Below, piece by piece: positions 3,881 to 53,482 of a DNA stretch of 64,000 nt. The notes under the pieces are model-generated. The model did no database searches. It was not told where the DNA came from and saw nothing but the letters and a program-made list of their open reading frames with translations. Numbering within the stretch: position 1 is the first letter of the stretch; the number at the start of each line of letters is the position of its first letter. Source of the DNA: a bacterium (GTDB taxonomy: Bacteria > Patescibacteriota > Minisyncoccia > Phycocordibacterales > Phycocordibacteraceae); the NCBI GenBank assembly GCA_037200965.1, contig JBBCGK010000001.1, positions 704,001 through 768,000 of the forward strand. The letters run 5' to 3'. Position numbers and translations under genes: made by a program.

Positions 3881-4022
3881 GGTTATCCCAGGGTTAGAAC
3901 CTCGCTGATGCAAAGAAACTTCTATATTTCCTAAGTGGTAGGCATAATGAGTACACAAAAGCCAATACGTGCCTACAGGGTACCCAGAATTAGGTCGAGA
4001 GGTTAAAACCTCCTCCTACAGA
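3881..4022. repeat. intergenic repeat element, copy 1 (~80% identical to 6790..6990)
   Basis: Shared blocks with copy 2: tagcggg...gttagaacctcgctgat...tatatttcct...aaaagccaatacgtgcctacagggtacccagaattagg...gaggttaaaacctcc. Confidence 0.5.
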
Positions 4023-5309
4023 TTAGGATGCAATTACCTTGTAGATTCGGTTATCAGCCACTGTGTCCGTGTTCTCTAGGTCAACCATTTCAAATACATA
4101 GCCATACTCCTTGAGTGAGTCTTCGAGCAGTGCCAGCGCGTCTTTGTCCTTATTTGAGAAACCGATATAGACCACGCCGTTTGGCGCAAGATATTCCTTT
4201 GTATTCTTAAGAAACTTAACCAGTACGCTATCTTCGTTACTCTGCGTCTTGAATGCATGGGCAAGGCTTGTATCCGTCTTCTTAACCTTCTCATTATGGA
4301 AGGGCGGATTGAAGAAGATGATATCGAAGTGATTTTTATAGATTGAAGGTATTTTTTCGAATAGATTGCTCTCGAAAGCCACCCCCTTATCTTTTTGAGG
4401 AGAATTCTCAAGGTTGTATTTAGCGTTCTGAACGGCAGTTGAATTGATATCGCTCATCACCACTTCTTTTGCGCCTACATCAAGCGCCACGAGGCCCATC
4501 GCTCCATGACCACATGCAATATCGAGAACTTTCTTATCCTTCGATACTCCACGAACAAGCTTCGCGAACAGTTTTGAGGAACGGAATCGATTAGAAGGAT
4601 AGACGCCAGGGAAGACGGTCATTACGAGCTTCTCGAACAGGATTTTATAGTTGCTCGTGTTTTTGAGTACATGCTTATAGATCTCATTCGAGGTGAGAGC
4701 CGGATAGTATATCGGCGGGTAATAGTTTTTCTTTACAAGAGCGTCGAGGTACTTCAGCACGATGGAAGCCGCTTCCTCGCCATCCTTTGCATAGAAGAGG
4801 GGAGTGGAATCAGGATGCATCAAGCCTTCTGCGGCGAATGAGTCTATAAGCGCCTTGTATCGAGTGAAGTAATCACCCACAAGAACAATAGGCTTATTGA
4901 TTTCTCCAAGAATATTCAATATATGGATCTCTAGAATTTCGTGGAATGTACCTACTGCTCCCGGTAGCGCGATGAATGCATCCCCAAGCTCGATAAGTCT
5001 GCGCTGGCGCTCGTAGTGATCCGCATATCCTTCATAATCGGAGAAATAGGGACTTGGCTTAGAATCGCGATTTCCAAGGGCAACGCCAAACAGGTTGCCG
5101 CCTGCTTCCACCGTAGCCTTTGCTACCACGTCCATGAGGCCAGAAGGGCGTCCGCCGTTATTAATGCCGTATCCAGCCTCGCTTATAAGCCGAGCCACGG
5201 CCTTGGCGTCATGAAGATAAGACTCGTTCGTAGTTTCCATGCCGCTGGAGAATATGGTCACGCGAGGCGTATATCCCGCCTCGGTTTTCTTGCTCGGCAT
5301 ATTTGTCAT
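4023..5309 (-). CDS. two-domain protein: N-terminal LOG-family (lysine-decarboxylase-like / SLOG fold) domain fused to a small SAM methyltransferase (MTS, NPPFH-type amino-MTase)
   Basis: LOG motifs GGRPSGLMDVV (GGxxGLM) and LPGAVGTFHEILE (PGGxGTxxE). C-terminal MTase motif I LDIACGHGAMG and motif IV FDIIFFNPPFHNE, which is RsmC/HemK-like. Confidence 0.65.
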   Translation of the reverse strand: MTNMPSKKTEAGYTPRVTIFSSGMETTNESYLHDAKAVARLISEAGYGINNGGRPSGLMDVVAKATVEAGGNLFGVALGNRDSKPSPYFSDYEGYADHYERQRRLIELGDAFIALPGAVGTFHEILEIHILNILGEINKPIVLVGDYFTRYKALIDSFAAEGLMHPDSTPLFYAKDGEEAASIVLKYLDALVKKNYYPPIYYPALTSNEIYKHVLKNTSNYKILFEKLVMTVFPGVYPSNRFRSSKLFAKLVRGVSKDKKVLDIACGHGAMGLVALDVGAKEVVMSDINSTAVQNAKYNLENSPQKDKGVAFESNLFEKIPSIYKNHFDIIFFNPPFHNEKVKKTDTSLAHAFKTQSNEDSVLVKFLKNTKEYLAPNGVVYIGFSNKDKDALALLEDSLKEYGYVFEMVDLENTDTVADNRIYKVIAS

Positions 5310-5397
5310 ATGCGAGAAGTATTGTATAAATGCTATTCACTGTCAAGTGATGTCAGACAGTACTTGACAACAAGTCAGGCAGGAATATACTGACCAT

Positions 5398-6159
5398 ATG
5401 GAACTCAACAAATCCCTTGAAGCTTTGGGCTTCTCATCAAAGGAGATTCAGGTTTATTTGGCGGTGATAAAGCTCGGTAAGACTACTCCAGCCGAAGTGG
5501 CGAAGATTACGAAAATCGGCCGCCCCACGGTCTATAATCTTGTTAAGAGTCTTATATCGAAGGGTGTGATAGCGGAGGATAAGGCCGATGCTGTGCTGCA
5601 CATCGTCGCACTGCCTCCCGAAGGCCTCCGAGCTACTATCGAACGGTCCAAGGTCGAGCTTTCAAAGAAAGAAGAACTTGTTGATGCGGCTATCGAAGAG
5701 CTTGGACTCATCCACTCAGGCGAGACCTATCCGGTGCCGCGCCTCCGTTTCGTGGAGGAGAACGAGCTACACGATTACCTTTTTCAGAATGCGGTTAAGT
5801 GGAATGAAAGCGTCCTCTCTAAGGACGGAATCTGGTACGGCTTCCAAGACCATAGTTTCGTAGAGAATTATGGAGATTGGATTGATTGGACGGTAAAGAA
5901 ACTCAAGGGAACGAAGTACAAGGTTCAACTATTCAGCAACGCTTCGAAAATTGAGGAACAGTTAGAAGGGAAGATCCCAGAGCGCTCAATCAAGTTCCTA
6001 AAGAGCTCTCGCTTTACGGCAACTACCTGGGTGGTAGGGGATTACCTCGTGATGATCTCAACCTCGAAGGCCCCGTTCTATTTGGTGGAGATTCACGATG
6101 CTCTTATGGCAGAGAATATGCGCGAAGTGTTTAAGAATATGTGGGAGATAAATAAATAA
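5398..6159 (+). CDS. TrmB-family HTH transcriptional regulator
   Basis: N-terminal winged-helix EIQVYLAVIKLGKTTPAEVAKITKIGRPTVYNLVKSLISKGVI. Length 253 aa, typical of TrmB. Confidence 0.6.
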   Translation: MELNKSLEALGFSSKEIQVYLAVIKLGKTTPAEVAKITKIGRPTVYNLVKSLISKGVIAEDKADAVLHIVALPPEGLRATIERSKVELSKKEELVDAAIEELGLIHSGETYPVPRLRFVEENELHDYLFQNAVKWNESVLSKDGIWYGFQDHSFVENYGDWIDWTVKKLKGTKYKVQLFSNASKIEEQLEGKIPERSIKFLKSSRFTATTWVVGDYLVMISTSKAPFYLVEIHDALMAENMREVFKNMWEINK

Positions 6160-6164
6160 GAATT

Positions 6165-6725
6165 ATGGATCGATACCTTGATCAGTGGGCGCGAATTAAC
6201 CGCTGGCATAGAAAAGTCAATACTTTTTATGAAGGAGAGAGAAGTGTTCTTGAGGATAATGAAAGATTGGATATGGTCCGAACTTTTTTCATAGAATGCT
6301 TTCATTTAAAGGATTGGATCAAAGCTGACTTTCCGAATCTTTCAGTAGCTACCGAAAGAATATTTGATCGAGTAGAAGGCGAGGAATGTTTCAAAATTTG
6401 TGCAGACCTAGCGAATGCATCGAAACACGTGGATCTTAATAAGGCAGTCAGAAAAGATAAAGAAACTAAAATCGGTACTCAAGGAATTACAATCATGGTT
6501 GATCCTATTAAATGGGATTCAGACCCGAAGGATTATTTGCCGCCCGTGTGTAAATACCGATGGGACATCATAGCGTCAAGGAAGAAGTTTGATGTAAAAG
6601 AGCTAGCCGATGAGTGTATTGAGAGTTGGAAGAAGTTTATGCGCAAGAATGGACTATCTATAGAGATTGTTGCTCGATTGTCCATTCCAATAGATGGAAC
6701 ATCTTTTGATGCCAAAGCGTCTTAG
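6165..6725 (+). CDS. hypothetical protein
   Basis: 186-aa ORF starting 6 nt after the TrmB-like gene in an AT-rich island. No motif recognised. Confidence 0.45.
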   Translation: MDRYLDQWARINRWHRKVNTFYEGERSVLEDNERLDMVRTFFIECFHLKDWIKADFPNLSVATERIFDRVEGEECFKICADLANASKHVDLNKAVRKDKETKIGTQGITIMVDPIKWDSDPKDYLPPVCKYRWDIIASRKKFDVKELADECIESWKKFMRKNGLSIEIVARLSIPIDGTSFDAKAS

Positions 6726-6789
6726 TACCGAAAGTAACAGTGATACTCCAGTCGTTTAAGAGATTACGGGAGAGGTGGAGGAAAGTTCC

Positions 6790-6990
6790 TAGCGGGTGCT
6801 TTTATGAAACTAGGTGGAATTGGATATCCGAGATAAGAACCTCGCTGATACTAAACAGCTCCTCATATTTCCTTCGTGTAGTGGATGACTGGGTATCAAA
6901 ATGAGCATACAAAAGCCAATACGTGCTTATAGGGTGCCCAAAACTAGGCGGAGGGGTTAGAACCTCCCATATTTTGGTAGTATTATCTAC
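6790..6990. repeat. intergenic repeat element, copy 2 (see 3881..4022)
   Basis: ~80% identity to copy 1 over ~150 nt. Ends in the hairpin-capable GGAGGGGTTAGAACCTCCC. A third short fragment (gttagaaccccc) lies at ~8078-8095. Confidence 0.5.
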
Positions 6991-7497
6991 ATGAAGATCG
7001 AATGGCTCGGAAAACGAATAGCAGTGGTTGGAGTAAGCGCATCAGGAAAATCAACTTTTGCGCGCAGACTTGCTACTAAGACTGGTCTGCCCCTGACGCA
7101 CATTGATGCCGTGATGTGGAAGCCGGGATGGGATTATATTGGCGATGAAGAAACAGTCCGCCAGCTCAAAGAAATCAGCAAGCAGGATGAATGGATCATC
7201 GAAGGATTCATCGATAAGAATGCTCTCGAAGCAGTTCTGACTCGTGCCGAATCAATAATCTATCTCGACTATCCGCGATACATACCTGCGTGGAGATACA
7301 TAAAACGATGGTTTAAGCATCGAAAGAATCCGCGCCCAGAATTGGAGGGCAGTCCAGAGAAATTCAGCTTTGAATTTCTGAAGCGGGTATGGGATAAGAA
7401 GGAAGTCTATCGGCTAAACGAATTTATTAAGAAAATGCCTGATACAAGCAAGATTCTGAGGCTCAAGTTGCCGAAGGAAGCAAATACTTTTCTATGA
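6991..7497 (+). CDS. P-loop NTPase, adenylate-kinase-like 'DNA topology modulation protein' (FlaR-like) family
   Basis: Walker A GVSASGKST near the N-terminus. Size 168 aa. Confidence 0.55.
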   Translation: MKIEWLGKRIAVVGVSASGKSTFARRLATKTGLPLTHIDAVMWKPGWDYIGDEETVRQLKEISKQDEWIIEGFIDKNALEAVLTRAESIIYLDYPRYIPAWRYIKRWFKHRKNPRPELEGSPEKFSFEFLKRVWDKKEVYRLNEFIKKMPDTSKILRLKLPKEANTFL

Positions 7498-7509
7498 GAG
7501 TAGTTACAT

Positions 7510-8028
7510 ATGGCTAGACTTATTATTCTCAATGGACCTCCTGGTGTAGGCAAATCTACGATTGCTGCACGTCTGCATAAGGATATTTCAAATTCGATAC
7601 TTCTGGATATAGATGAGATTCGTCGCTCCATTCCAAATTATAAAGAGCAACGTAAGGAAAGTCTGATTCTGGCGTATCAGGAGGCAATGCGGACCATAGA
7701 AGACTGTTTAGCTAAAGATCAGACCGTTATTATAGATAAGGTTGTTTCGGACTCAGATACACTCGATTCTTTTGTTGAGGCAGGGAATAAACAGGGTGTC
7801 GTAATAAATGAGATTCTCCTATTTGCAGACAAGGAATCAGTACAGAAGCGAGCAGACGAGCGTGGTTACAAACCAGGAAGTTTACTTACCCGTGAGCGAG
7901 TAGGAGACATGTGGGATCAAGTGAGTGTACTCAGAAGAAGTAGGAATAACGCTGTTGTTATGGATACGACTCATTTAAATCTTGAAGAAGTGTACAAAAA
8001 TGTAAGAGGAATAATCGGGCAAGTATAA
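7510..8028 (+). CDS. P-loop kinase-like ATPase (AAA_33 / zeta-toxin / shikimate-kinase-like)
   Basis: Walker A NGPPGVGKST. Length 172 aa. Tandem to the previous kinase-like gene. Confidence 0.5.
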   Translation: MARLIILNGPPGVGKSTIAARLHKDISNSILLDIDEIRRSIPNYKEQRKESLILAYQEAMRTIEDCLAKDQTVIIDKVVSDSDTLDSFVEAGNKQGVVINEILLFADKESVQKRADERGYKPGSLLTRERVGDMWDQVSVLRRSRNNAVVMDTTHLNLEEVYKNVRGIIGQV

Positions 8029-8153
8029 CCCGCCGGTAGGGGTGGAAGAGAAGTCCGGAATTTCTGAGAAGTTTCTGCAGAAAGTTAGAACCCCCAATCT
8101 GTTAAGACGCGCCAACACGAATGGTTACTTAACTCGGCCTTTCGTGAAATGAT

Positions 8154-8566
8154 GTGGAGGTGGGGAGGTTGAACTCCCGTCCGACCTGCGCTTGAGAGCG
8201 AGTCTACGGCGCGTAGTTCCGATTAGGGTTTAAGAGAGGATGCGAGGAAACGGAACGAAACCATTCCCCTCCGATCCCGTTATCTAAGCCGCGGGCCGGG
8301 AGAGCCGCGAACCGATCGCACAGAAGATTCCGCCCGCTGGCCCGGCTGTGCGCACCCGGGACCAGGGACGTCGCTTAGGCGAGGTGAGCCGAAGCTCGAA
8401 CCTTATGCGTAAGCGAACGCGAAGTTCCCTGCGGTAAAGTAAGGAGACTTCACGCCTACAACAGTTTTGTTTGCAGGTAGAGTTTCCCGCCAGATTAAAG
8501 TGATGGGCGGGAGTGCACTGCGCCGCACGTCTCTCAAGGTACAGGCCGTCAAAGCCGGTCACCCCC
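8154..8566 (-). ncRNA. ssrA: tmRNA (ssrA), one-piece
   Basis: The minus-strand 5' end GGGGGUGACCGGCUUUGACGG matches the tmRNA 5' consensus (GGGGCUGAUUCUGGAUUCGACGG). The 3' end GGACGGGAGUUCAACCUCCCCACCUCCA is a tRNA-Ala-like T-arm plus acceptor. There is an internal ORF ending ...AGNFAFAYA-UAA. The gene sits adjacent to smpB. Confidence 0.7.
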
Positions 8567-12383: not shown

Positions 12384-12455
12384 CCACCCATAGCTCAATG
12401 GTAGAGCGATCGACTTATATTCGATTGGCTCCAGGTTCGAGTCCTGGTGGGTGGA
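12384..12455 (+). tRNA. tRNA, anticodon read as UAU (Ile2-type); no encoded CCA
   Basis: Cloverleaf: acceptor CCACCCA/TGGGTGG, D-arm GCTC-AATGGTA-GAGC, anticodon arm ATCGA-CTTATAT-TCGAT, T-arm CCAGG-TTCGAGT-CCTGG, discriminator A. Confidence 0.7.
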
Positions 12456-13280
12456 CTACCGAGGGAATATATCAACGAGTTCGCCCGAACTATAAAAGTC
12501 CGCGGCAAGACCGCCGAAGCTATACGAAACACCGAGAATATCGATGGCCGCGCCGCCTACCTGCGGATTCGCGTTCGGGGTCGAATGCGCGAAGCCGATG
12601 TTGTAAAGCGTCGAGACGACCGCGGGGTTTCCTTCGATAGGGAAGCCCGCCTTCCTCCACTGCGCTTCCACCTCCTTTATATAGAGTCCCGCATAGAGAT
12701 AGCTCCAATAGTGGTCGTGCTGGTCGGTCATGCGCGCGAAGCGTTCGCTTTCTACGTCGGTCGTCCGGAAGTCGAGCGCGTGCCCGAACTCAGGCCCCGG
12801 ATAGTACGGCGAGGCCGGATCCTTCAGATTATTCTCCACTTGGATCGCCGTGTCTTCTTTCATCCCCATCACGCCCCAGGAAAACTGTGTCTGAGAACCC
12901 AGGATCTTGAGCGGATAGAAGAATTGCTTATAAAACTCCCGTTCCGTGAAGAAAAGCCGCAGCTGTTCGGCGACCAAATTCGCGGCGATGAGCCGCGCGG
13001 GAACGCCCGAGTCGGCAGCCGCCCGGTCGAGCGCCGCGGTATCTTTCCGAAGCGCCGCCTCGAGCACCTGCCATTCTTCGGTCTTCTGCCAGGGCGTGCC
13101 ACGCGGATCGCTAGGCGCGAAGTCGGTCGATGTCGCGGAACCGATGAACGCTTCGCGCTGGAGGTCGACGATGCCGCTCGTGTTGGTGAGTCCGAACCGG
13201 ACCGCGAAGTATCCGACGACGAGGAAGAAGCCGATCGCGGCGAATATATAAATGACGATCGAGACGACTTTCTTAAGCAT
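12456..13280 (-). CDS. hypothetical membrane-anchored protein
   Basis: N-terminal TM helix (VVSIVIYIFAAIGFFLVVGYFAV) and balanced composition. The opposite-strand ORF 12447..13316 is R-rich and was judged spurious. Confidence 0.5.
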   Translation of the reverse strand: MLKKVVSIVIYIFAAIGFFLVVGYFAVRFGLTNTSGIVDLQREAFIGSATSTDFAPSDPRGTPWQKTEEWQVLEAALRKDTAALDRAAADSGVPARLIAANLVAEQLRLFFTEREFYKQFFYPLKILGSQTQFSWGVMGMKEDTAIQVENNLKDPASPYYPGPEFGHALDFRTTDVESERFARMTDQHDHYWSYLYAGLYIKEVEAQWRKAGFPIEGNPAVVSTLYNIGFAHSTPNANPQVGGAAIDILGVSYSFGGLAADFYSSGELVDIFPR

Positions 13281-22011: not shown

Positions 22012-22101
22012 GGAGACGTGGCTGAGTGGTCGAAAGTACCTCACTGCTAACGAGGCAGGGATTAACGTCCCTCGAGGGTTCGAATCCCTCCGTCTCCGCC
22101 A
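22012..22101 (+). tRNA. tRNA-Ser (anticodon GCU), CCA encoded
   Basis: GGAGACG acceptor, long variable arm GCAGGGATTAACGTCCCTC, anticodon loop CTGCTAA, T-loop GGTTCGAATCC, ...CGTCTCC-G-CCA. Confidence 0.85.
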
Positions 22102-22155
22102 GATGTCCAAATTCGAACCCAAGCAGAATAAGGGTATTTGGACTAAGATAATGAC

Positions 22156-23250
22156 ATGGCAACCAAAACGGCAAATTCAGGTCTTCATCAGGCCAAAACT
22201 GCCAAAAAGGACGAGTTTTATACCCAACTCGTTGATATTGAAAAAGAGCTGAAACACTACAAGGACCAATTTCGTGGCAAGGTGATTTTTCTGAATTGTG
22301 ACGATCCGTACGAAAGCAACTTCTTCAAGTATTTCGCTGGTAATTTCAATGCTCTCGGATTAAAGCAGCTTATTGCCACGAGCTACAAGCGATCGCCTAT
22401 TGCCAACACCCAATTAGGACTCTTTACCGATGGTGAGGTAGTGTCCGCAACTAAAGGCCGCCCAAAAGTGACTGCCAACAAATTCGTTATTAACGAAGTT
22501 GATGACATAAATGGTGACGGTTCTTTTGACTTGCGTGATATTGCGGAGCAGCTTAAAGCTAATAAAAATAACGAATGGACTCCATTAGACGGCGAAGGAG
22601 ATTTTCGGAGTCCGGAGAGCGTAGAACTGCTCAAGCAAGCTGATATTGTGGTGACAAACCCGCCCTTCTCGCTTTTCGGCGAGTATATTGATCAACTTGT
22701 TCAATACCAGAAAAAGTTTCTGATATTAGGAAATCAGAACGCTATTAAATATAAAAATGTCTTCAAGCTTATAAAGGAGAATAGGATGTGGCTAGGCTAT
22801 GACAATGGAGGAACGAAATGGTTCCAGGTGCCGGATGACTATGATATACAAACCGAATCAAGAATCAAAATAGAAAACGGTGTGAAATATTTTAGTATGG
22901 GCAGCATTGTGTGGTTTACAAATCTTGACACAACGAAGCGTCACATAGATTTCACAATGTACAAAAAATACAAACCCGAAGCATATTCAAAGTACGATAA
23001 TTACGACGCGATCGAGGTTTCTAGGGTGGTAGAAATACCAATGGACTATGGCGGCGAAATGGGAGTTCCGATTACCTTTTTAGATAAATATAATCCTGAC
23101 CAATTTGAGATTATTGATCTGCTAAACCGATACACCTTGTTTGACTCTCAGCAAACGAACGAAGATGTCAGACGAAGGCACTCCCACACTTGTAATATCA
23201 ATGGCAAGGCCGTATTTTCTCGAATTTTAATAAAGAACAAGCAAATTTGA
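22156..23250 (+). CDS. N6-adenine-type DNA methyltransferase (NPPF motif; EcoRI-methylase-like family)
   Basis: DEFYTQ...VIFLNCDDPYES followed by IVVTNPPFS (motif IV). AT-rich codon usage distinct from the host. Confidence 0.6.
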   Translation: MATKTANSGLHQAKTAKKDEFYTQLVDIEKELKHYKDQFRGKVIFLNCDDPYESNFFKYFAGNFNALGLKQLIATSYKRSPIANTQLGLFTDGEVVSATKGRPKVTANKFVINEVDDINGDGSFDLRDIAEQLKANKNNEWTPLDGEGDFRSPESVELLKQADIVVTNPPFSLFGEYIDQLVQYQKKFLILGNQNAIKYKNVFKLIKENRMWLGYDNGGTKWFQVPDDYDIQTESRIKIENGVKYFSMGSIVWFTNLDTTKRHIDFTMYKKYKPEAYSKYDNYDAIEVSRVVEIPMDYGGEMGVPITFLDKYNPDQFEIIDLLNRYTLFDSQQTNEDVRRRHSHTCNINGKAVFSRILIKNKQI

Positions 23251-23258
23251 AAATAATT

Positions 23259-24362
23259 ATGAAAATCGAGCTAAATAAGGTTTCGGTCCGTGAAGTGGTG
23301 GCAGAATATAAAGACAGCGCTGAGGAGGGTGTTGTGGCCTATGACGGTAAGCTCGATGTGCGCCCAAAGTATCAGCGAGAATTCGTATATAAAGACAAAC
23401 AACGCGATGCCGTTATTGATACTGTCAGAAAAGGGTTTCCACTTAACGTGATGTATTGGGTAAAGACCGACGAAGGAAATTTTGAAGTATTGGACGGGCA
23501 GCAGAGAACAATCAGTCTCGGTCAGTATGTAAACGGTGACTTCTCTGTTGATTTCAACGGTCGTCTGGCTATGTTCCACAACCTTACCAAAGAAGAGCAG
23601 GAGCAGATTCTGAACTATGAACTGATGATTTATTTCTGCGAAGGAAACGATAAGGAAAAGCTCGATTGGTTCAAGATCATCAATATTGGCGGTGAGCGTC
23701 TAACCGATCAGGAGTTACGCAATGCTGTCTATACCGGTCCGTGGCTTTCTGATGCCAAGCTCAAATTCAGTAAATCAAACTGTGCGGCATACCTCCTCGC
23801 AAACGATGGCGGTGCGCTGCTCAAGGGCTCTCCAATTCGGCAAGAATACTTGGAAACTGCGATCTCATGGATAAATAACGGGGATGTGGCGGGCTACATG
23901 GCAAAACACCAGCACGATGAGAATGCGGAAGAATTATGGAAGTACTTCCAAAGTGTTATTGAGTGGGTACGCAGGACCTTCCCAAACTACCGCAAAGAAA
24001 TGGCGAGCGTAAATTGGGGGGAACTATATAACGAATACAAAGACAAAAAACTCGACGACACAAAACTAGAAGAGGAAATCGCACGATTGATGCAAGACGA
24101 AGATGTAACGAAGAAATCCGGTATTTACCCTTATGTCCTTACGGGCGAGGAACATCACCTTTCAATCCGTGCGTTTAACGACAATATGAAGCGGGAGGCG
24201 TATGAGCGCCAGAAAGGTATCTGTGTGAAATGCGGGAAGAAGTTTGAGATCGAGGAAATGGAAGCCGACCACATTACACCGTGGCACCAGGGAGGAAAAA
24301 CAAAAGCCGAAAATTGCCAGATGCTATGTAAAGACGATAACCGGAGAAAATCTGGAAAATGA
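23259..24362 (+). CDS. DUF262 (ParB/GmrS-like, DGQQR) domain fused to C-terminal HNH endonuclease
   Basis: LDGQQRTISL (DUF262 signature). C-terminal CVKCGKKFEIEEMEADHITPWHQGGKTKAENCQMLCKDDN is a canonical HNH Cys4/His-Asn finger. The ORF-track start 23247 is a TTG; the ATG at 23259 lies 8 nt after the MTase stop. Confidence 0.7.
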   Translation: MKIELNKVSVREVVAEYKDSAEEGVVAYDGKLDVRPKYQREFVYKDKQRDAVIDTVRKGFPLNVMYWVKTDEGNFEVLDGQQRTISLGQYVNGDFSVDFNGRLAMFHNLTKEEQEQILNYELMIYFCEGNDKEKLDWFKIINIGGERLTDQELRNAVYTGPWLSDAKLKFSKSNCAAYLLANDGGALLKGSPIRQEYLETAISWINNGDVAGYMAKHQHDENAEELWKYFQSVIEWVRRTFPNYRKEMASVNWGELYNEYKDKKLDDTKLEEEIARLMQDEDVTKKSGIYPYVLTGEEHHLSIRAFNDNMKREAYERQKGICVKCGKKFEIEEMEADHITPWHQGGKTKAENCQMLCKDDNRRKSGK

Positions 24363-24997
24363 TAATGAAACAAGGAGATCTCCATATCTGGGTAAGAAAA
24401 TTACTCCAACAGCTTCGTACCCAAACCGATTCAAAAGAAGATTTATATACAAATATTCTTCTCTGGGCACACGATAAGCAAGAGTCTGGATTCTCATGGG
24501 AGGAAATGAGATCAAAGTTCTCACTGAATGCAGAACAAGAACATTGGGTTAGGAATATTTTCCTAACTACTTCAGATGGAGATAGGAAATTCTTTGAACA
24601 TTTACGGAACGATGATTCCGTATCACCGAATATTTATTACTACGCTTTAAATGAAAAAGGGATCACAGCGGCAATAAACTACAAGGGCTTGCGACATGCT
24701 GAAAAGAGCAGCACCCAAGCGTTATGGGTCGCAAGTATATCTATTTTTCTGGCAGCTATCGGTTTGTTTTTTACAGTTAAACAAACGAATTTGGCCGAGA
24801 CCCAAAGTATCTCGGAAAGGATAAATCAAGCAAGGAGTATACAATCAGCGCTTGAATTCTGTCAGCAGAATCCTGATTCTCAAGATTCTGGTCTCTATGA
24901 GATCTCGACTGGTAAATCTGCTTCATGTCCTCAAGTAGTGCGTAACTATTCCTCTACCTCCTCACTGTTGGATAGAATCAAAAGTCTGTTTAAGTAA
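24359..24997 (+). CDS. small protein with one central TM helix (unknown function), third gene of operon
   Basis: Its ATG overlaps the upstream stop (ATGA). The TM segment is ALWVASISIFLAAIGLFFTV. Confidence 0.5.
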   Translation: MIMKQGDLHIWVRKLLQQLRTQTDSKEDLYTNILLWAHDKQESGFSWEEMRSKFSLNAEQEHWVRNIFLTTSDGDRKFFEHLRNDDSVSPNIYYYALNEKGITAAINYKGLRHAEKSSTQALWVASISIFLAAIGLFFTVKQTNLAETQSISERINQARSIQSALEFCQQNPDSQDSGLYEISTGKSASCPQVVRNYSSTSSLLDRIKSLFK

Positions 24998-25405
24998 CTG
25001 GAGAATTCGGATTTATTCTATTGAATAATCGATCGCACTCTTTCTTTTAGACGATTTAGGCTGTGGCACCTCAAACCACTCCGGATGAGCTTTATATATA
25101 GCCCTCAATTCCTGTATACTTTTATCAAGTTTCCCGAAGGTAAGCCGTGTTTTTGGTTCGAATTTCGGGACACCGCCTCCGCATCTAACAGCTAGCACCA
25201 GGAACCTCGGGTCTAGCTGGTGTCTAAAAACATCCGGTACTTTCTCTTACTTGTTCAATATAAAAAGGACGGGCCGGAACTGTAGAAGTTCCGGCCCATG
25301 TACTGTGTTCCCGTATTGAGTTTTGTATATTGCTTGATCAGGTGGTCCTACCTGTTGCAGGCGTGAGGAGAGACTTACTCTCCTCACGTTTATAACCTGC
25401 AGGAC

Positions 25406-45968: not shown

Positions 45969-48500
<2,532 letters not shown>

Positions 48501-50900: not shown

Positions 50901-51482
50901 ATGCAAACCACGGGCGACGTCAACTTTCTCAACCTCGAGTGGTGGTTCCGCCTCATCTACGAACTTGCGTTCGGCTCCCATTCCTTCTCGTCCGCCGGTT
51001 TCGGCGCCTTCCTTTCGCGGGTGTGGCTGTGGGTGACGGTCGTCGGCTCGATCGTCGCGGTTCTCTCGCTCGTCGTAATCGCGTATTGCATCATGCGGCT
51101 CTTCGAACTCCGGAAGAAGGAATCCGAAGCGCTCGGGCCCGTTATCCATCTCGCAAAAGATAACGGTGCGAATCCTCGCTGGGTCCATATACAGTCGCTC
51201 ATGGACGGCGCGAATCCGAGCCAGTGGAGAGAAGCGATACTCGAAGCCGACATCCTGCTTGAGGATATGCTTAAGGAGCAGCGCTATACGGGCGCCGGAG
51301 TGGGGGAGATGCTTAAACAGGTTGAGCGCTCGGATTTCAATACGCTCGACGCGGCGTGGGAGGCACACCGGGTCAGAAACGACATCGCGCACCGCGGCTC
51401 TACGATCGAGCTCACCGAACAGCTCGCCCGGCGTACCATCGCCAAGTATGAATCCGTATTCAGGGAGTTCGACATGATTTAG
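50901..51482 (+). CDS. hypothetical membrane protein
   Basis: N-terminal TM pair. The C-terminal helical region contains an R-x4-H (RNDIAH), a HEPN-like motif, but the call is weak. Confidence 0.45.
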   Translation: MQTTGDVNFLNLEWWFRLIYELAFGSHSFSSAGFGAFLSRVWLWVTVVGSIVAVLSLVVIAYCIMRLFELRKKESEALGPVIHLAKDNGANPRWVHIQSLMDGANPSQWREAILEADILLEDMLKEQRYTGAGVGEMLKQVERSDFNTLDAAWEAHRVRNDIAHRGSTIELTEQLARRTIAKYESVFREFDMI

Positions 51483-51590
51483 GGCGGCGGGTTGCAAAGC
51501 CCATTTTAGAGGTGTAGTCTTGGTGTATAGCGGAACAGATGAGTAGCTATTCCGTGGGGAAGAAATCAGCGTGTGCCTACTCAAAAAGAC

Positions 51591-51882
51591 AGCGGGGTAG
51601 AGGAGTGGTACCTCGGGAGGCTTGAATTATTCGGGCGTGCGCGCGAGCAATTGCGCGTAAGATCATCTGCCAAATTCGGTGAAACCCTCCTGCGCGAAAG
51701 CACAGACGGCAACGCCGAGCCAAGCCCTAAGAGCAATCGAAGGGAAGGTGTAGAGACTAGACGGTAGACATCCCGCAGGGGATGAAGGCATAGTCCAGAC
51801 CACAAATCATTCGTGCGAGAGCGGCGAAAGCCGTAGTGGTAGGCATAACCTCCAGACTCGGGTTCGAATCCCGACCCCGCAA
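51591..51882 (+). tRNA. tRNA(CAU) (Met/fMet/Ile2-type) interrupted by a ~221-nt group I intron in the anticodon loop
   Basis: 5' exon AGCGGGG-TA-GAGG-AGTGGTA-CCTC-G-GGAGG-CT (51591-51622). 3' exon CATAA-CCTCC-AGAC-TCGGG-TTCGAAT-CCCGA-CCCCGCA-A (51844-51882). The exons join to a normal cloverleaf with anticodon loop CUCAUAA. Confidence 0.65.
51623..51843 (+). ncRNA. group I intron (self-splicing ribozyme) within tRNA(CAU)
   Basis: The 5' exon ends in U and the intron ends in G. Core elements: P-like CAATTGCGCGTAAG; R-like GTGTAGAGACTAGAC (consensus GUUCAGAGACUA); S-like AAGGCATAGTCC (consensus AAGAUAUAGUCC). The P7 pairing is GACUA/UAGUC. Confidence 0.6.
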
Positions 51883-51949
51883 CAAGCTTGTGATAGTGGA
51901 ACCCAGACCGGTGCGCCTGCAAAAGCAGTTCAGTATCGGTCCGGATCAA

Positions 51950-51978
51950 AAACAGAAAAGACGCCCACGGGCGTCTTT
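51950..51978 (+). terminator. rho-independent terminator after the tRNA (AGACGCCC-ACGG-GGCGTCT + TTTTCTGTT)
   Basis: Perfect 8-bp GC stem with a T-run. Confidence 0.6.
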
Positions 51979-52054
51979 TCTGTTGGAATATAAATAAAAG
52001 GAGCATATAAACGACAAGGCCCCGATATACATCGGAGCCTCTAGGCGTCGCACT

Positions 52055-52640: not shown

Positions 52641-53482
52641 GGCATTCAGACTCAGTTGGCACAGCTCCCATACCATGGAAGCTATGTACACTCTCAAACA
52701 GATACCGAGCGAAGCGCAGATTCGGAAGTTCTTGCGCCGTACGCTCTTCGGCAAGAACGTGTTCTGTCCTTCGTGCCGGTCACGAAGGATCGAAAAGCAA
52801 CAGGAGCGGTATCGGTGCCGCACGTGCCGCATCCGCTTCTCCCTCACCTCGCACACCTGGCTCTCGAATCTGAAGCTCCCCCTCGAGCAGTGGTGGGTGC
52901 TGCTCTGGTGCTGGACCATACAAGAGCCGGTACGCCAAGCCGTCACGCTCTCTGGCCTTCCGGAACGCACGGTCAGGCGTTGGTATGCCACCTTCAGGCT
53001 CCATTTGCCCCAGGAAACCCATGTGCTCGAACGTATCGTCCAAATGGACGAAGCGTACTTCAAAAACGCCGCGCTCGTCATGGCCAAGCAGAAAGGTACG
53101 AGAAAGCTCGCCTTCGAGGTATTCCACGGCAGGTACCCAACCAAGACTGATGCCGTCTCATTCCTGTTCGAGCATGTGGCGCCGGGAAGCGAGCTCTGGA
53201 CCGATGGCGGGTCGATATACAAGAACATCAGCCAACGCTGGCCGGTGTCGCACCAGCGAGATATTCACTCCAAATTCGAGTTCGAGCACACCTCTGAGAT
53301 CGAGGGAATGTTCGGGGTATACCGCACCTTCGTGCGCAGGATGTATCATCATCACTGGAGCGAGAACTTGGAGGAATACGTGAGGGAATTCTGCTTCAGA
53401 TTTTCCTCGCCGGAAATCTTCAATTCGCCCCGTATTTACTTAACGAAATCACTCACGCTTGTGCCAACTTGTTCTTAATACC
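52641..53482 (+). mobile_element. IS1595-family insertion sequence (approximate ends)
   Basis: Imperfect terminal inverted repeats containing AGTTGGCACA / TGTGCCAACT. Flanked by the direct repeat CCGATGGTGG (52631-52640 and 53483-53492). Confidence 0.55.
52675..53478 (+). CDS. IS1595-family (ISXO2-like) transposase
   Basis: N-terminal Zn-ribbon CPSC...CRTC, then the DDE region (DEAYF... / ...ELWTDGGSIY...). Length 267 aa. Confidence 0.75.
   Translation: MEAMYTLKQIPSEAQIRKFLRRTLFGKNVFCPSCRSRRIEKQQERYRCRTCRIRFSLTSHTWLSNLKLPLEQWWVLLWCWTIQEPVRQAVTLSGLPERTVRRWYATFRLHLPQETHVLERIVQMDEAYFKNAALVMAKQKGTRKLAFEVFHGRYPTKTDAVSFLFEHVAPGSELWTDGGSIYKNISQRWPVSHQRDIHSKFEFEHTSEIEGMFGVYRTFVRRMYHHHWSENLEEYVREFCFRFSSPEIFNSPRIYLTKSLTLVPTCS

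Follow-up and report, generated by a model that had tools for sequence, protein, structure and literature searches.

The 64,000-nucleotide (nt) stretch of contig JBBCGK010000001.1 analysed here, referred to below as the window, contains a tRNA(CAU) gene in two halves at 51591-51882 on the forward strand. In our reading, to which we assign a probability of about 0.9, this is an initiator tRNA-fMet(CAU) gene interrupted between U33 and C34 by a compact group I intron of the IC3 type that carries no open reading frame (ORF). The 5′ exon (51591-51622, +) reads AGCGGGG UA GAGG AGUGGUA CCUC G GGAGG CU. It supplies the 5′ strand of the acceptor stem, the D-arm (G10 A11 G12 G13 / C22 C23 U24 C25), the GGAGG 5′ strand of the anticodon stem, and C32 U33. 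After the intron (51623-51843, +; 221 nt), the 3′ exon (51844-51882, +) reads CAUAA CCUCC AGAC UCGGG UUCGAAU CCCGA CCCCGCA A and continues with C34 A35 U36 A37 A38, the CCUCC 3′ strand of the anticodon stem, a 4-nt variable region, the T-arm, the acceptor 3′ strand, and the discriminator A73. The CCA end is not encoded. The initial annotation had described a tRNA whose halves, separated by about 221 nt, flank a group I intron inserted between U33 and C34, with CUCAUAA as the mature anticodon loop. These points were all borne out, and its observation and interpretation were right overall, except that it mislabelled the P element and took such introns to be rarer than is now known.

Both exons were read directly from the sequence. 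An Rfam 15 scan of the whole window on both strands, at gathering thresholds, returned a single group I match, RF00028 (Intron_gpI) at 51614-51815 (+), which scored 58.8 bits where the gathering threshold is 50 (E 2.4e-12, model positions 1-253). Default ARAGORN, which listed a transfer-messenger RNA (tmRNA), tRNA-Ile(UAU) and tRNA-Ser in the window, missed the split gene. Once 51623-51843 was removed in silico, the program found a 72-nt cloverleaf and called it tRNA-Met(cat). In its intron mode, ARAGORN recovered the same two exons and a 221-nt intron with the junction set three bases downstream, which produced the label tRNA-Ser(tga). This junction was rejected, as it would leave A as the last base of the exon and U as that of the intron, and the long variable arm of tRNA-Ser is absent.

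Only with the junction at U33|C34 does the 5′ exon end in U, the intron end in G, and the loop have seven nucleotides (CUCAUAA). The spliced junction is predicted to read ...GGAGGCU|CAUAACCUCC.... Uninterrupted alleles of the same gene were sought in JGI metagenome contigs, which were scanned with an alignment of the protein of 193 amino acids (aa) encoded just upstream. At least 575 relatives were found, of which the best 80 were kept, and the tRNA was sought in the 1.2 kb that follow the protein gene. Of the 80 syntenic loci, 48 had an initiator-type tRNA(CAU) without interruption and 11 an intron-bearing one. Another 11, with at least 400 nt of downstream sequence, had no initiator tRNA, and 10 were too short to judge. 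The intron was therefore found in 11 of the 59 tRNA-bearing loci (~19%), the other 81% being uninterrupted. The uninterrupted alleles read ...GGAGGCUCAUAACCUCC... across the insertion site. The commonest of them, AGCGGGGTAGAGGAGAGGTACCTCGGGAGGCTCATAACCTCCAGACGCCGG..., matches the in-silico spliced tRNA of the window at 65 of 71 positions, and the anticodon arm GGGAGGCUCAUAACCUCC is wholly identical. Uninterrupted genes at the syntenic site with the same anticodon arm thus confirm the U33|C34 junction, and they are the strongest non-experimental evidence that ...GGCU would be ligated to CAUAACC....

Two variants were observed at this junction. Seven uninterrupted alleles have C33 (loop CCCAUAA) instead of the near-universal U33. 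One intron-bearing locus, with its tRNA about 790-1019 nt downstream of the protein match, has C at position -1 (GGAGGCC|UGAG...). It would present C-G, and not U·G, at the 5′ splice site, resembling the ‘Leu.3Cg’ type that Williams (10.1101/2020.01.27.920355) singled out as needing a splicing test. The idea that C33 marks an intron-immune allele was dropped because of this intron-bearing locus.

Relatives of the intron were collected with the pattern GTAGAGACTAGACGG-N(15-45)-TAGTC-N(25-55)-GCATAACC, scanned over one genome per GTDB species, which gave at least 120 matches. The bare core motif GGTGTAGAGACTAGACGG was discarded as a search key, as it is too common, occurring in at least 120 IMG/VR contigs. 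Among the matches listed, 103 loci allowed a CAU tRNA interrupted at 33/34 to be reconstructed. The host tRNAs were either of the initiator type, (C/A/U)GCGGGG...GAG(C/G/A)...CUCAUAACC...CCCCGCA, to which the window belongs, or of a GGGCCC type (Ile2- or Met-like) found mainly in Chloroflexota, Gracilibacteria and Peregrinibacteria. We aligned 48 distinct initiator-type introns of at most 260 nt, each with 8 nt of flanking exon per side, and wrote the structure model from the window sequence and standard group I architecture.

The P1-P9b model paired 93.4% of the alignment cells, compared with 31-42% when the 3′ partners were slid by 1-3 columns. Changes on both sides of a pair were seen at 35 of 55 pairs, amounting to 434 cells against 42-102 in the slid controls, and none of 500 shuffles attained the observed pairing or covariation score. 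RNAalifold, blind to the model, recovered P1, P2, P3, P4, P5, P6a, P8, P9a and P9b. It also added one covarying P8 pair and paired the tRNA anticodon stem across the intron. The minimum free energy of the single sequence was only mildly better than that of shuffles (z = -2.3), which fits an RNA with a pseudoknot, a feature that such folding cannot represent; P2, P4, P6a, P8 and P9b came out right and the rest mispaired. In the alignment, 96 columns are conserved at 90% or more among the other 47 introns, and the window agrees with the consensus at every one of them; nothing in its sequence suggests decay of the intron.

In P1 (51620-51626 / 51630-51636, +), exon residues G31 C32 U33 and intron residues U1 G2 A3 A4 pair with U8 U9 C10 G11 G12 G13 C14 of the intron. 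The wobble between U33 (51622) and G12 (51634) marks the 5′ splice site. This U·G pair is invariant in all 48 sequences, and so is ωG (51843, +), the last intron nucleotide before the 3′ splice site, which the junction rule also predicts. The pair at intron position 1 is C-G in 35 sequences and U·G in 13; at the pair after it, 26 sequences have AU and 12 have GC. P2 (51638-51659, +) has nine base pairs (bp), all of which change on both sides, and is capped by a GCAA tetraloop of the GNRA family (51647-51650). The sequence CAAUUGCGCGUAAG (51648-51661), which had been taken for a P-like element, is this loop together with the 3′ strand of P2. The actual P element, comprising J3/4 and the 5′ strand of P4, is AAAUUCGGUG at 51672-51681, with CGCCGA (51713-51718) as its partner. 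The 5′ strand of P3, UCUGCC (51666-51671, +), pairs with GGUAGA (51763-51768, +) to form a pseudoknot with P7; both-side changes occur at four of the six pairs and 99.7% of the cells are paired.

The P4-P6 domain (51675-51748, +) has compensatory changes in P4, P5 and P6a, all three of which were also returned by RNAalifold. P4 (51676-51681 / 51713-51718, +) is followed by J4/5, which is AAA, and by P5/P5a (51685-51709, +) with a GAAA loop at 51696-51699, where P5 covaries and P5a was read from the window only. P6/P6a (51720-51748, +) ends in a GCAA loop; all four P6a pairs are compensatory, and the distal part of P6a was read from the window only. The 5′ strand of P7, GACUA (51755-51759, +), lies inside the R element GUGUAGAGACUAGACGG, and the 3′ strand, UAGUC (51791-51795, +), inside the S element AAGGCAUAGUCC, as had been proposed from the start. 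By homology, P7 would be the guanosine-binding helix. P8 (51769-51784, +) consists of 6 bp, CAUCCC/GGGAUG, with a GCAG loop, and was supported by both the alignment and RNAalifold; its outer pair is CG in 39 sequences, UA in six, GC in two and AU in one. In the P9 domain (51800-51839, +), RNAalifold recovered P9a and P9b. P9 itself, CCAC/GUGG, shows both-side changes at three of four pairs, P9b (GCGGC-GAAA-GCCGU, tetraloop 51826-51829) at all five, and P9a is a variable hairpin that covaries in relatives.

The identity of the host tRNA was judged by the criteria of Silva et al. (PMC1635315). According to these authors, A11-T24 and G12-C23 completely discriminate fMet from Met and Ile2 tRNAs, and the fMet anticodon stem follows R29G30G31/Y39C40Y41, with AGG..CCT in alphaproteobacteria and chloroplasts. 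They also found G2, C3, G70, C71 and A72 to be nearly invariant in fMet and position 1:72 to be mismatched (PMC1635315). The D stem of the window tRNA, GAGG/CCUC, has both A11:U24 and G12:C23, and its anticodon stem, A29G30G31/C39C40U41, fits the rule. Positions 2-7/66-71 (GCGGGG/CCCCGC), including G2 C3 / G70 C71 A72, are those of canonical initiators. The A1·A72 mismatch, which the initial annotation had read as a hint of an initiator, is thus accompanied by A11:U24, G12:C23 and AGG/CCU. The anticodon stem lacks the three G-C pairs that a stricter rule asks for, pair 29:41 being A-U. The assignment as initiator tRNA-fMet(CAU) is well supported by these sequence features.

Several points weigh against our interpretation. 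Self-splicing is inferred from conservation, and the case for it is drawn from sequence. The members of the alignment were picked by a pattern taken from the window and are a biased sample of the class. P7 is complementary but invariant, its bases being fixed by the search pattern, and it contributes no covariation support. P9a hardly folds in the window. P10 is weak as well: UUAU and AUAA could form 4 bp in the window, and we do not claim this pairing, as the closest relatives do not conserve it. The nucleotide before ωG is also G, and the 3′ splice site could sit one base off. In the tRNA, base 1 is A and not the usual C (initiators usually combine C1 with A72), and pair 29:41 is A-U and not G-C; A1 or U1 is common among the retrieved Patescibacterial initiator genes, and many likewise have A-U at 29:41. 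A sigma-70 scan found no promoter upstream of the split gene. Finally, as regards any further initiator tRNA gene, our view of the genome covers 64 kb.

This last point bears on a reading in which the intron has decayed to a relic, the split gene is a pseudogene, and a second, uninterrupted initiator tRNA gene does the work. The uninterrupted state of 81% of the syntenic relatives, the weak P9a, and the inferential nature of splicing would all be compatible with it. A relic, however, would hardly be expected to match the consensus at all 96 highly conserved columns, to retain every core helix together with U-1·G and ωG, or to lie between exons that agree with uninterrupted alleles at 65 of 71 positions and still form an intact cloverleaf. 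The gene also occupies the conserved syntenic site of the initiator tRNA. We therefore consider decay very unlikely.

It is also highly improbable that the host is an elongator tRNA-Met, or a tRNA-Ile2 in which C34 is converted to lysidine. The anticodon CAU is common to all three tRNAs, the A at position 1 and the A-U pair at 29:41 depart from the usual initiator, and the same type of intron interrupts GGGCCC-type CAU tRNAs at 33/34 in Chloroflexota and Gracilibacteria. Nevertheless, A11:U24, G12:C23, the 1:72 mismatch, AGG/CCU and C3-G70 indicate fMet by the published criteria (PMC1635315), and the GCGGGG/CCCCGC acceptor stem is that of canonical CGCGGGG initiator genes that host the same intron class. 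Separate elongator-type tRNA-Met genes (G1-C72, C11:G24) adjoin the initiator type in related loci. Moreover, the window encodes a tRNA-Ile(UAU) (12384-12456, +; 73 bits), whose anticodon is uncommon in bacteria. AUA would then be readable without a lysidine-bearing tRNA-Ile2, which makes the need for such a tRNA less likely.

There is next to no chance that the region encodes a 141-aa antisense protein or that mis-assembly joined the two tRNA halves. The antisense frame (51581-52006, -) came from a mechanical ORF listing and, as the initial annotation had suspected, is not a gene: it has no Pfam match and is absent from the public gene calls of the identical contig. The introns of close relatives are 205-250 nt long, with length differences of -3, +5, -5, -11, +9 etc., and those that are not multiples of three break any common antisense frame; the substitutions, in turn, follow the RNA helices. 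Antisense open frames of 79-165 aa do overlap the intron in relatives, and such variable frames are what a GC-rich conserved RNA would give. As to mis-assembly, which had been raised as a doubt, contig JAATEX010000024.1 of the NCBI assembly GCA_015655515.1 shares 6318 nt with the window at 100% identity, the whole split gene included. Together with the same architecture in more than 100 species, this excludes an artefact.

The inventory of structural elements is IC3-like: P2 is present, there is no sequence room for P5abc or P7.1/P7.2, and J3/8 and J8/7 measure 0-1 and 6-7 nt, respectively. Three fMet 33/34 introns that Nakagawa et al. 2026 label IC3 in their Table S5 (PMC13011429) share 61-66% global identity with the window intron (best BLAST E 4e-16); they come from Omnitrophota, Desulfobacterota and Nitrospirota. 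An IA1 intron reached 54%, with no BLAST match. On these comparisons, the intron is assigned to the classical fMet 33/34 class (‘fMet.2Ug’, IC3). The survey by Williams (10.1101/2020.01.27.920355) defines four classical bacterial tRNA settings, Leu.3Ug, Arg.5Ug, fMet.2Ug and Ile2.5Ug, all IC3, where position ‘2’ corresponds to 33/34. These settings account for 3453 of 5292 introns in about 80,000 genomes (10.1101/2020.01.27.920355). The surveys put tRNA group I introns in the thousands and in at least 18 phyla (10.1101/2020.01.27.920355; PMC13011429). Nakagawa et al. treat 33/34 in tRNA-fMet as a well-characterised site and include IC3 examples from Bacteroidota, Desulfobacterota, Nitrospirota and Omnitrophota (PMC13011429). 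With the matches from our own scan, which come from at least 120 species, these figures make outdated the earlier statement that bacterial tRNA introns are rare and known mainly from cyanobacteria and a few proteobacteria.

A group I intron in tRNA-fMet was reportedly first described in cyanobacteria, in Synechocystis PCC 6803, by Biniszkiewicz et al. in 1994. The window intron shares with the classical fMet intron the initiator tRNA host, the U33|C34 site, the U-1/ωG rule, and a compact core of the IC3 type. Its patchy presence among relatives resembles that said to hold for cyanobacterial fMet introns. It differs in its Patescibacterial host and in lacking an endonuclease ORF. Its tRNA has A1·A72 and A29:U41 in place of C1·A72 and G29:C41, and intron position 1 is U (U·G), where C (C-G) is commoner in the class. 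The cyanobacterial tRNA-Leu IC3 intron belongs to the same subgroup and has a broadly similar fold. However, it resides in a different tRNA at a different site, its R element is GGUGCAGAGACUCGACGG rather than GGUGUAGAGACUAGACGG, and its global identity is 55%, with only a short core match in BLAST (60 nt at 75%).

The Azoarcus intron lies after the anticodon (36/37, ‘Ile2.5Ug’) of tRNA-Ile2 in a betaproteobacterium. Like the window intron, it is compact (~200 nt) and interrupts the anticodon loop of a CAU tRNA, with P2-P9, GNRA loops on P2 and P9, and neither P5abc nor an ORF. The segments AAAUUCGG(C/U)GAAACC, GGCAACGCCGAGCCAAGC, GAAGGUGUAGAGACUAGACGG and GAAGGCAUAGUCCAG presumably occur nearly verbatim in the Azoarcus IC3 ribozyme. 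Canonical 11-nt tetraloop receptors are present in P5 and P8 of the Azoarcus intron; no such receptor was seen in P5 of the window.

The Patescibacterial introns of Nakagawa et al. (PMC13011429) share with ours the phylum and a tRNA gene that default tRNA finders do not see. Table 1 of that survey lists two Microgenomatia genomes in which a Met(CAU) tRNA of the UGCGGGG type is interrupted at 33/34 by an intron (PMC13011429). The core of these introns is different (ggctatatcgg..., ccgagggaag, agagactacacgcc), whereas that of the window and its Paceibacteria relatives is of the IC3 type. In the same survey, the tRNA introns in 95 complete Patescibacterial genomes included none of the IC group, most being IA at 35/36 (PMC13011429). 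In our alignment, at least 25 of the 48 introns that share the IC3-type core carry a Patescibacterial label. The mismatch probably reflects sampling, i.e. complete genomes versus metagenome-assembled genomes (MAGs), and Williams’ 2017 data set may already contain such Patescibacterial cases.

Versions of the 33/34 intron 600-650 nt long carry ORFs. In initiator tRNAs of Omnitrophota and Planctomycetes, a sense ORF of ~145 aa was found in eight loci. Its product is a homologue of PDB 2OST (E 6e-47), which we take to be I-Ssp6803I, the PD-(D/E)xK homing endonuclease of the Synechocystis tRNA-fMet intron. If this identification is right, the longer members tie the retrieved set to the classical class. 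The 221-nt intron of the window has no homing endonuclease ORF. A separate observation concerns the GGGCCC-type CAU tRNAs, where more than six loci have an HNH-like ORF on the antisense strand, marked by CxxC and NCHAELHNP motifs.

The matches listed bear Patescibacterial labels (Parcubacteria, Paceibacteria, Kaiser-, Nomura-, Taylor- and Zambryskibacteria, Saccharibacteria, Gracilibacteria, Peregrinibacteria), as well as those of Omnitrophota, Planctomycetes, Chloroflexota, Bacillota, Nitrospira and Bdellovibrionales. Across the whole split gene, the nearest relatives among them are L190 (84%), L136 and L238 (Parcubacteria bacterium C7867-007; 82% each), followed by two Candidatus Kaiserbacteria loci, L214 (81%) and L194 (80%). 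The gene order ligA-gatC-gatA-193aa-tRNA is common to the window and Kaiserbacteria/Parcubacteria MAGs, with full-length GatA identities to the window of 64-77% in the nearest loci and 50-77% in the wider set. Judging from the labels of these relatives, the host would be a Patescibacterium of the Paceibacteria/Kaiserbacteria type.

The identity of the intron tracks that of GatA (Spearman 0.70, p = 3e-4, n = 22), and the synteny is deep. Yet the 11 syntenic loci with the intron are scattered among loci that lack it and have comparable protein identity. Old, mostly vertical inheritance with frequent precise loss would be the simplest account, and occasional regain by recombination or reverse splicing may have occurred as well. 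The intron would then be a long-standing passenger, repeatedly lost or occasionally regained, without an endonuclease of its own. In ten syntenic loci the initiator tRNA lies on the strand opposite the 193-aa gene, often followed by an elongator tRNA-Met and tRNA-Asp, which implies that the local tRNA cluster was rearranged within the lineage.

If the precursor behaves according to the established group I pathway, it would fold into the P1-P9 ribozyme, and an exogenous guanosine held at P7 would attack the phosphodiester after U33, at the site marked by the U33·G wobble of P1. The freed 3′-OH of U33 would then attack after ωG (51843), joining CU to CAUAA and releasing the 221-nt intron. The ligated tRNA would still need ordinary end processing and, as no CCA is encoded, CCA addition.

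The split gene lies 108 nt downstream of the gene for the 193-aa predicted membrane protein (50901-51482, +), which itself follows ligA (46476-48500), gatC and gatA. This protein has no Pfam family and contains the conserved motifs WRxAIxEAD and AWEAHKVRNxIAH. The window, many Paceibacteria MAGs, and at least 59 metagenome loci all have its gene directly before the initiator tRNA. A perfect 15-bp hairpin (51951-51984, +; GC-rich core 51960-51975), which ends in TTTTCTGTT, lies about 70 nt past the 3′ end of the tRNA. It is probably a terminator, possibly acting in both directions. The terminator scan did not list it, probably since the T-run lies within the extended stem. An ORF for an IS1595-family (ISXO2-like) transposase with a zinc ribbon and a DDE domain (52675-53478, +) begins ~800 nt downstream of the split tRNA.

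Elsewhere in the window, the tmRNA gene (8152-8566, -; RF00023, 95.3 bits) has large insertions relative to the model, and the tag peptide predicted by ARAGORN, GPAGGIFCAIGSRLSRPAA, is atypical. It is adjoined by a low-GC stretch (4000-8050; 42-47%) that encodes a LOG/SLOG-methyltransferase fusion (4023-5309, -), a TrmB-like regulator (5398-6159), and AAA_33/zeta-toxin-like kinases (6991-8028). Another low-GC stretch (43-46% vs about 60% elsewhere; 22012-25000 with the tRNA) directly follows tRNA-Ser(GCU) (22012-22101). Encoding an EcoRI-like adenine methyltransferase (22156-23250, E 4e-137) together with a GmrSD_N+HNH endonuclease (23247-24362), it resembles a small restriction/defence islet beside a tRNA gene; direct repeats flanking it were not found.

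The window intron is a well-preserved, ordinary example of a long-known and widespread class, and it leaves the understanding of group I introns unchanged. We think it unlikely that the split gene is the sole initiator tRNA gene of a reduced genome and that its intron regulates initiator supply by nucleotide or energy state. If that were true, all translation initiation would depend on a guanosine- and Mg2+-dependent ribozyme step, which would be an instance of the idea of RNA-based regulation in place of proteins raised for Patescibacteria (PMC13011429). It is likelier that Paceibacteria hold a large stock of IC3 tRNA-fMet introns that has been overlooked, which would contradict the view that Patescibacterial tRNA introns are never IC. 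Such introns are common in MAGs of the Paceibacteria type, unlike in the survey of 95 complete genomes (PMC13011429). As default tRNA finders miss the split gene, a genome of this kind would seem to lack an initiator tRNA, and apparent gene loss of such a kind is often over-interpreted in Patescibacteria. Moreover, a single syntenic locus in which about one-fifth of the relatives carry the intron offers a clean natural series for following the loss and gain of a group I intron without a homing endonuclease.

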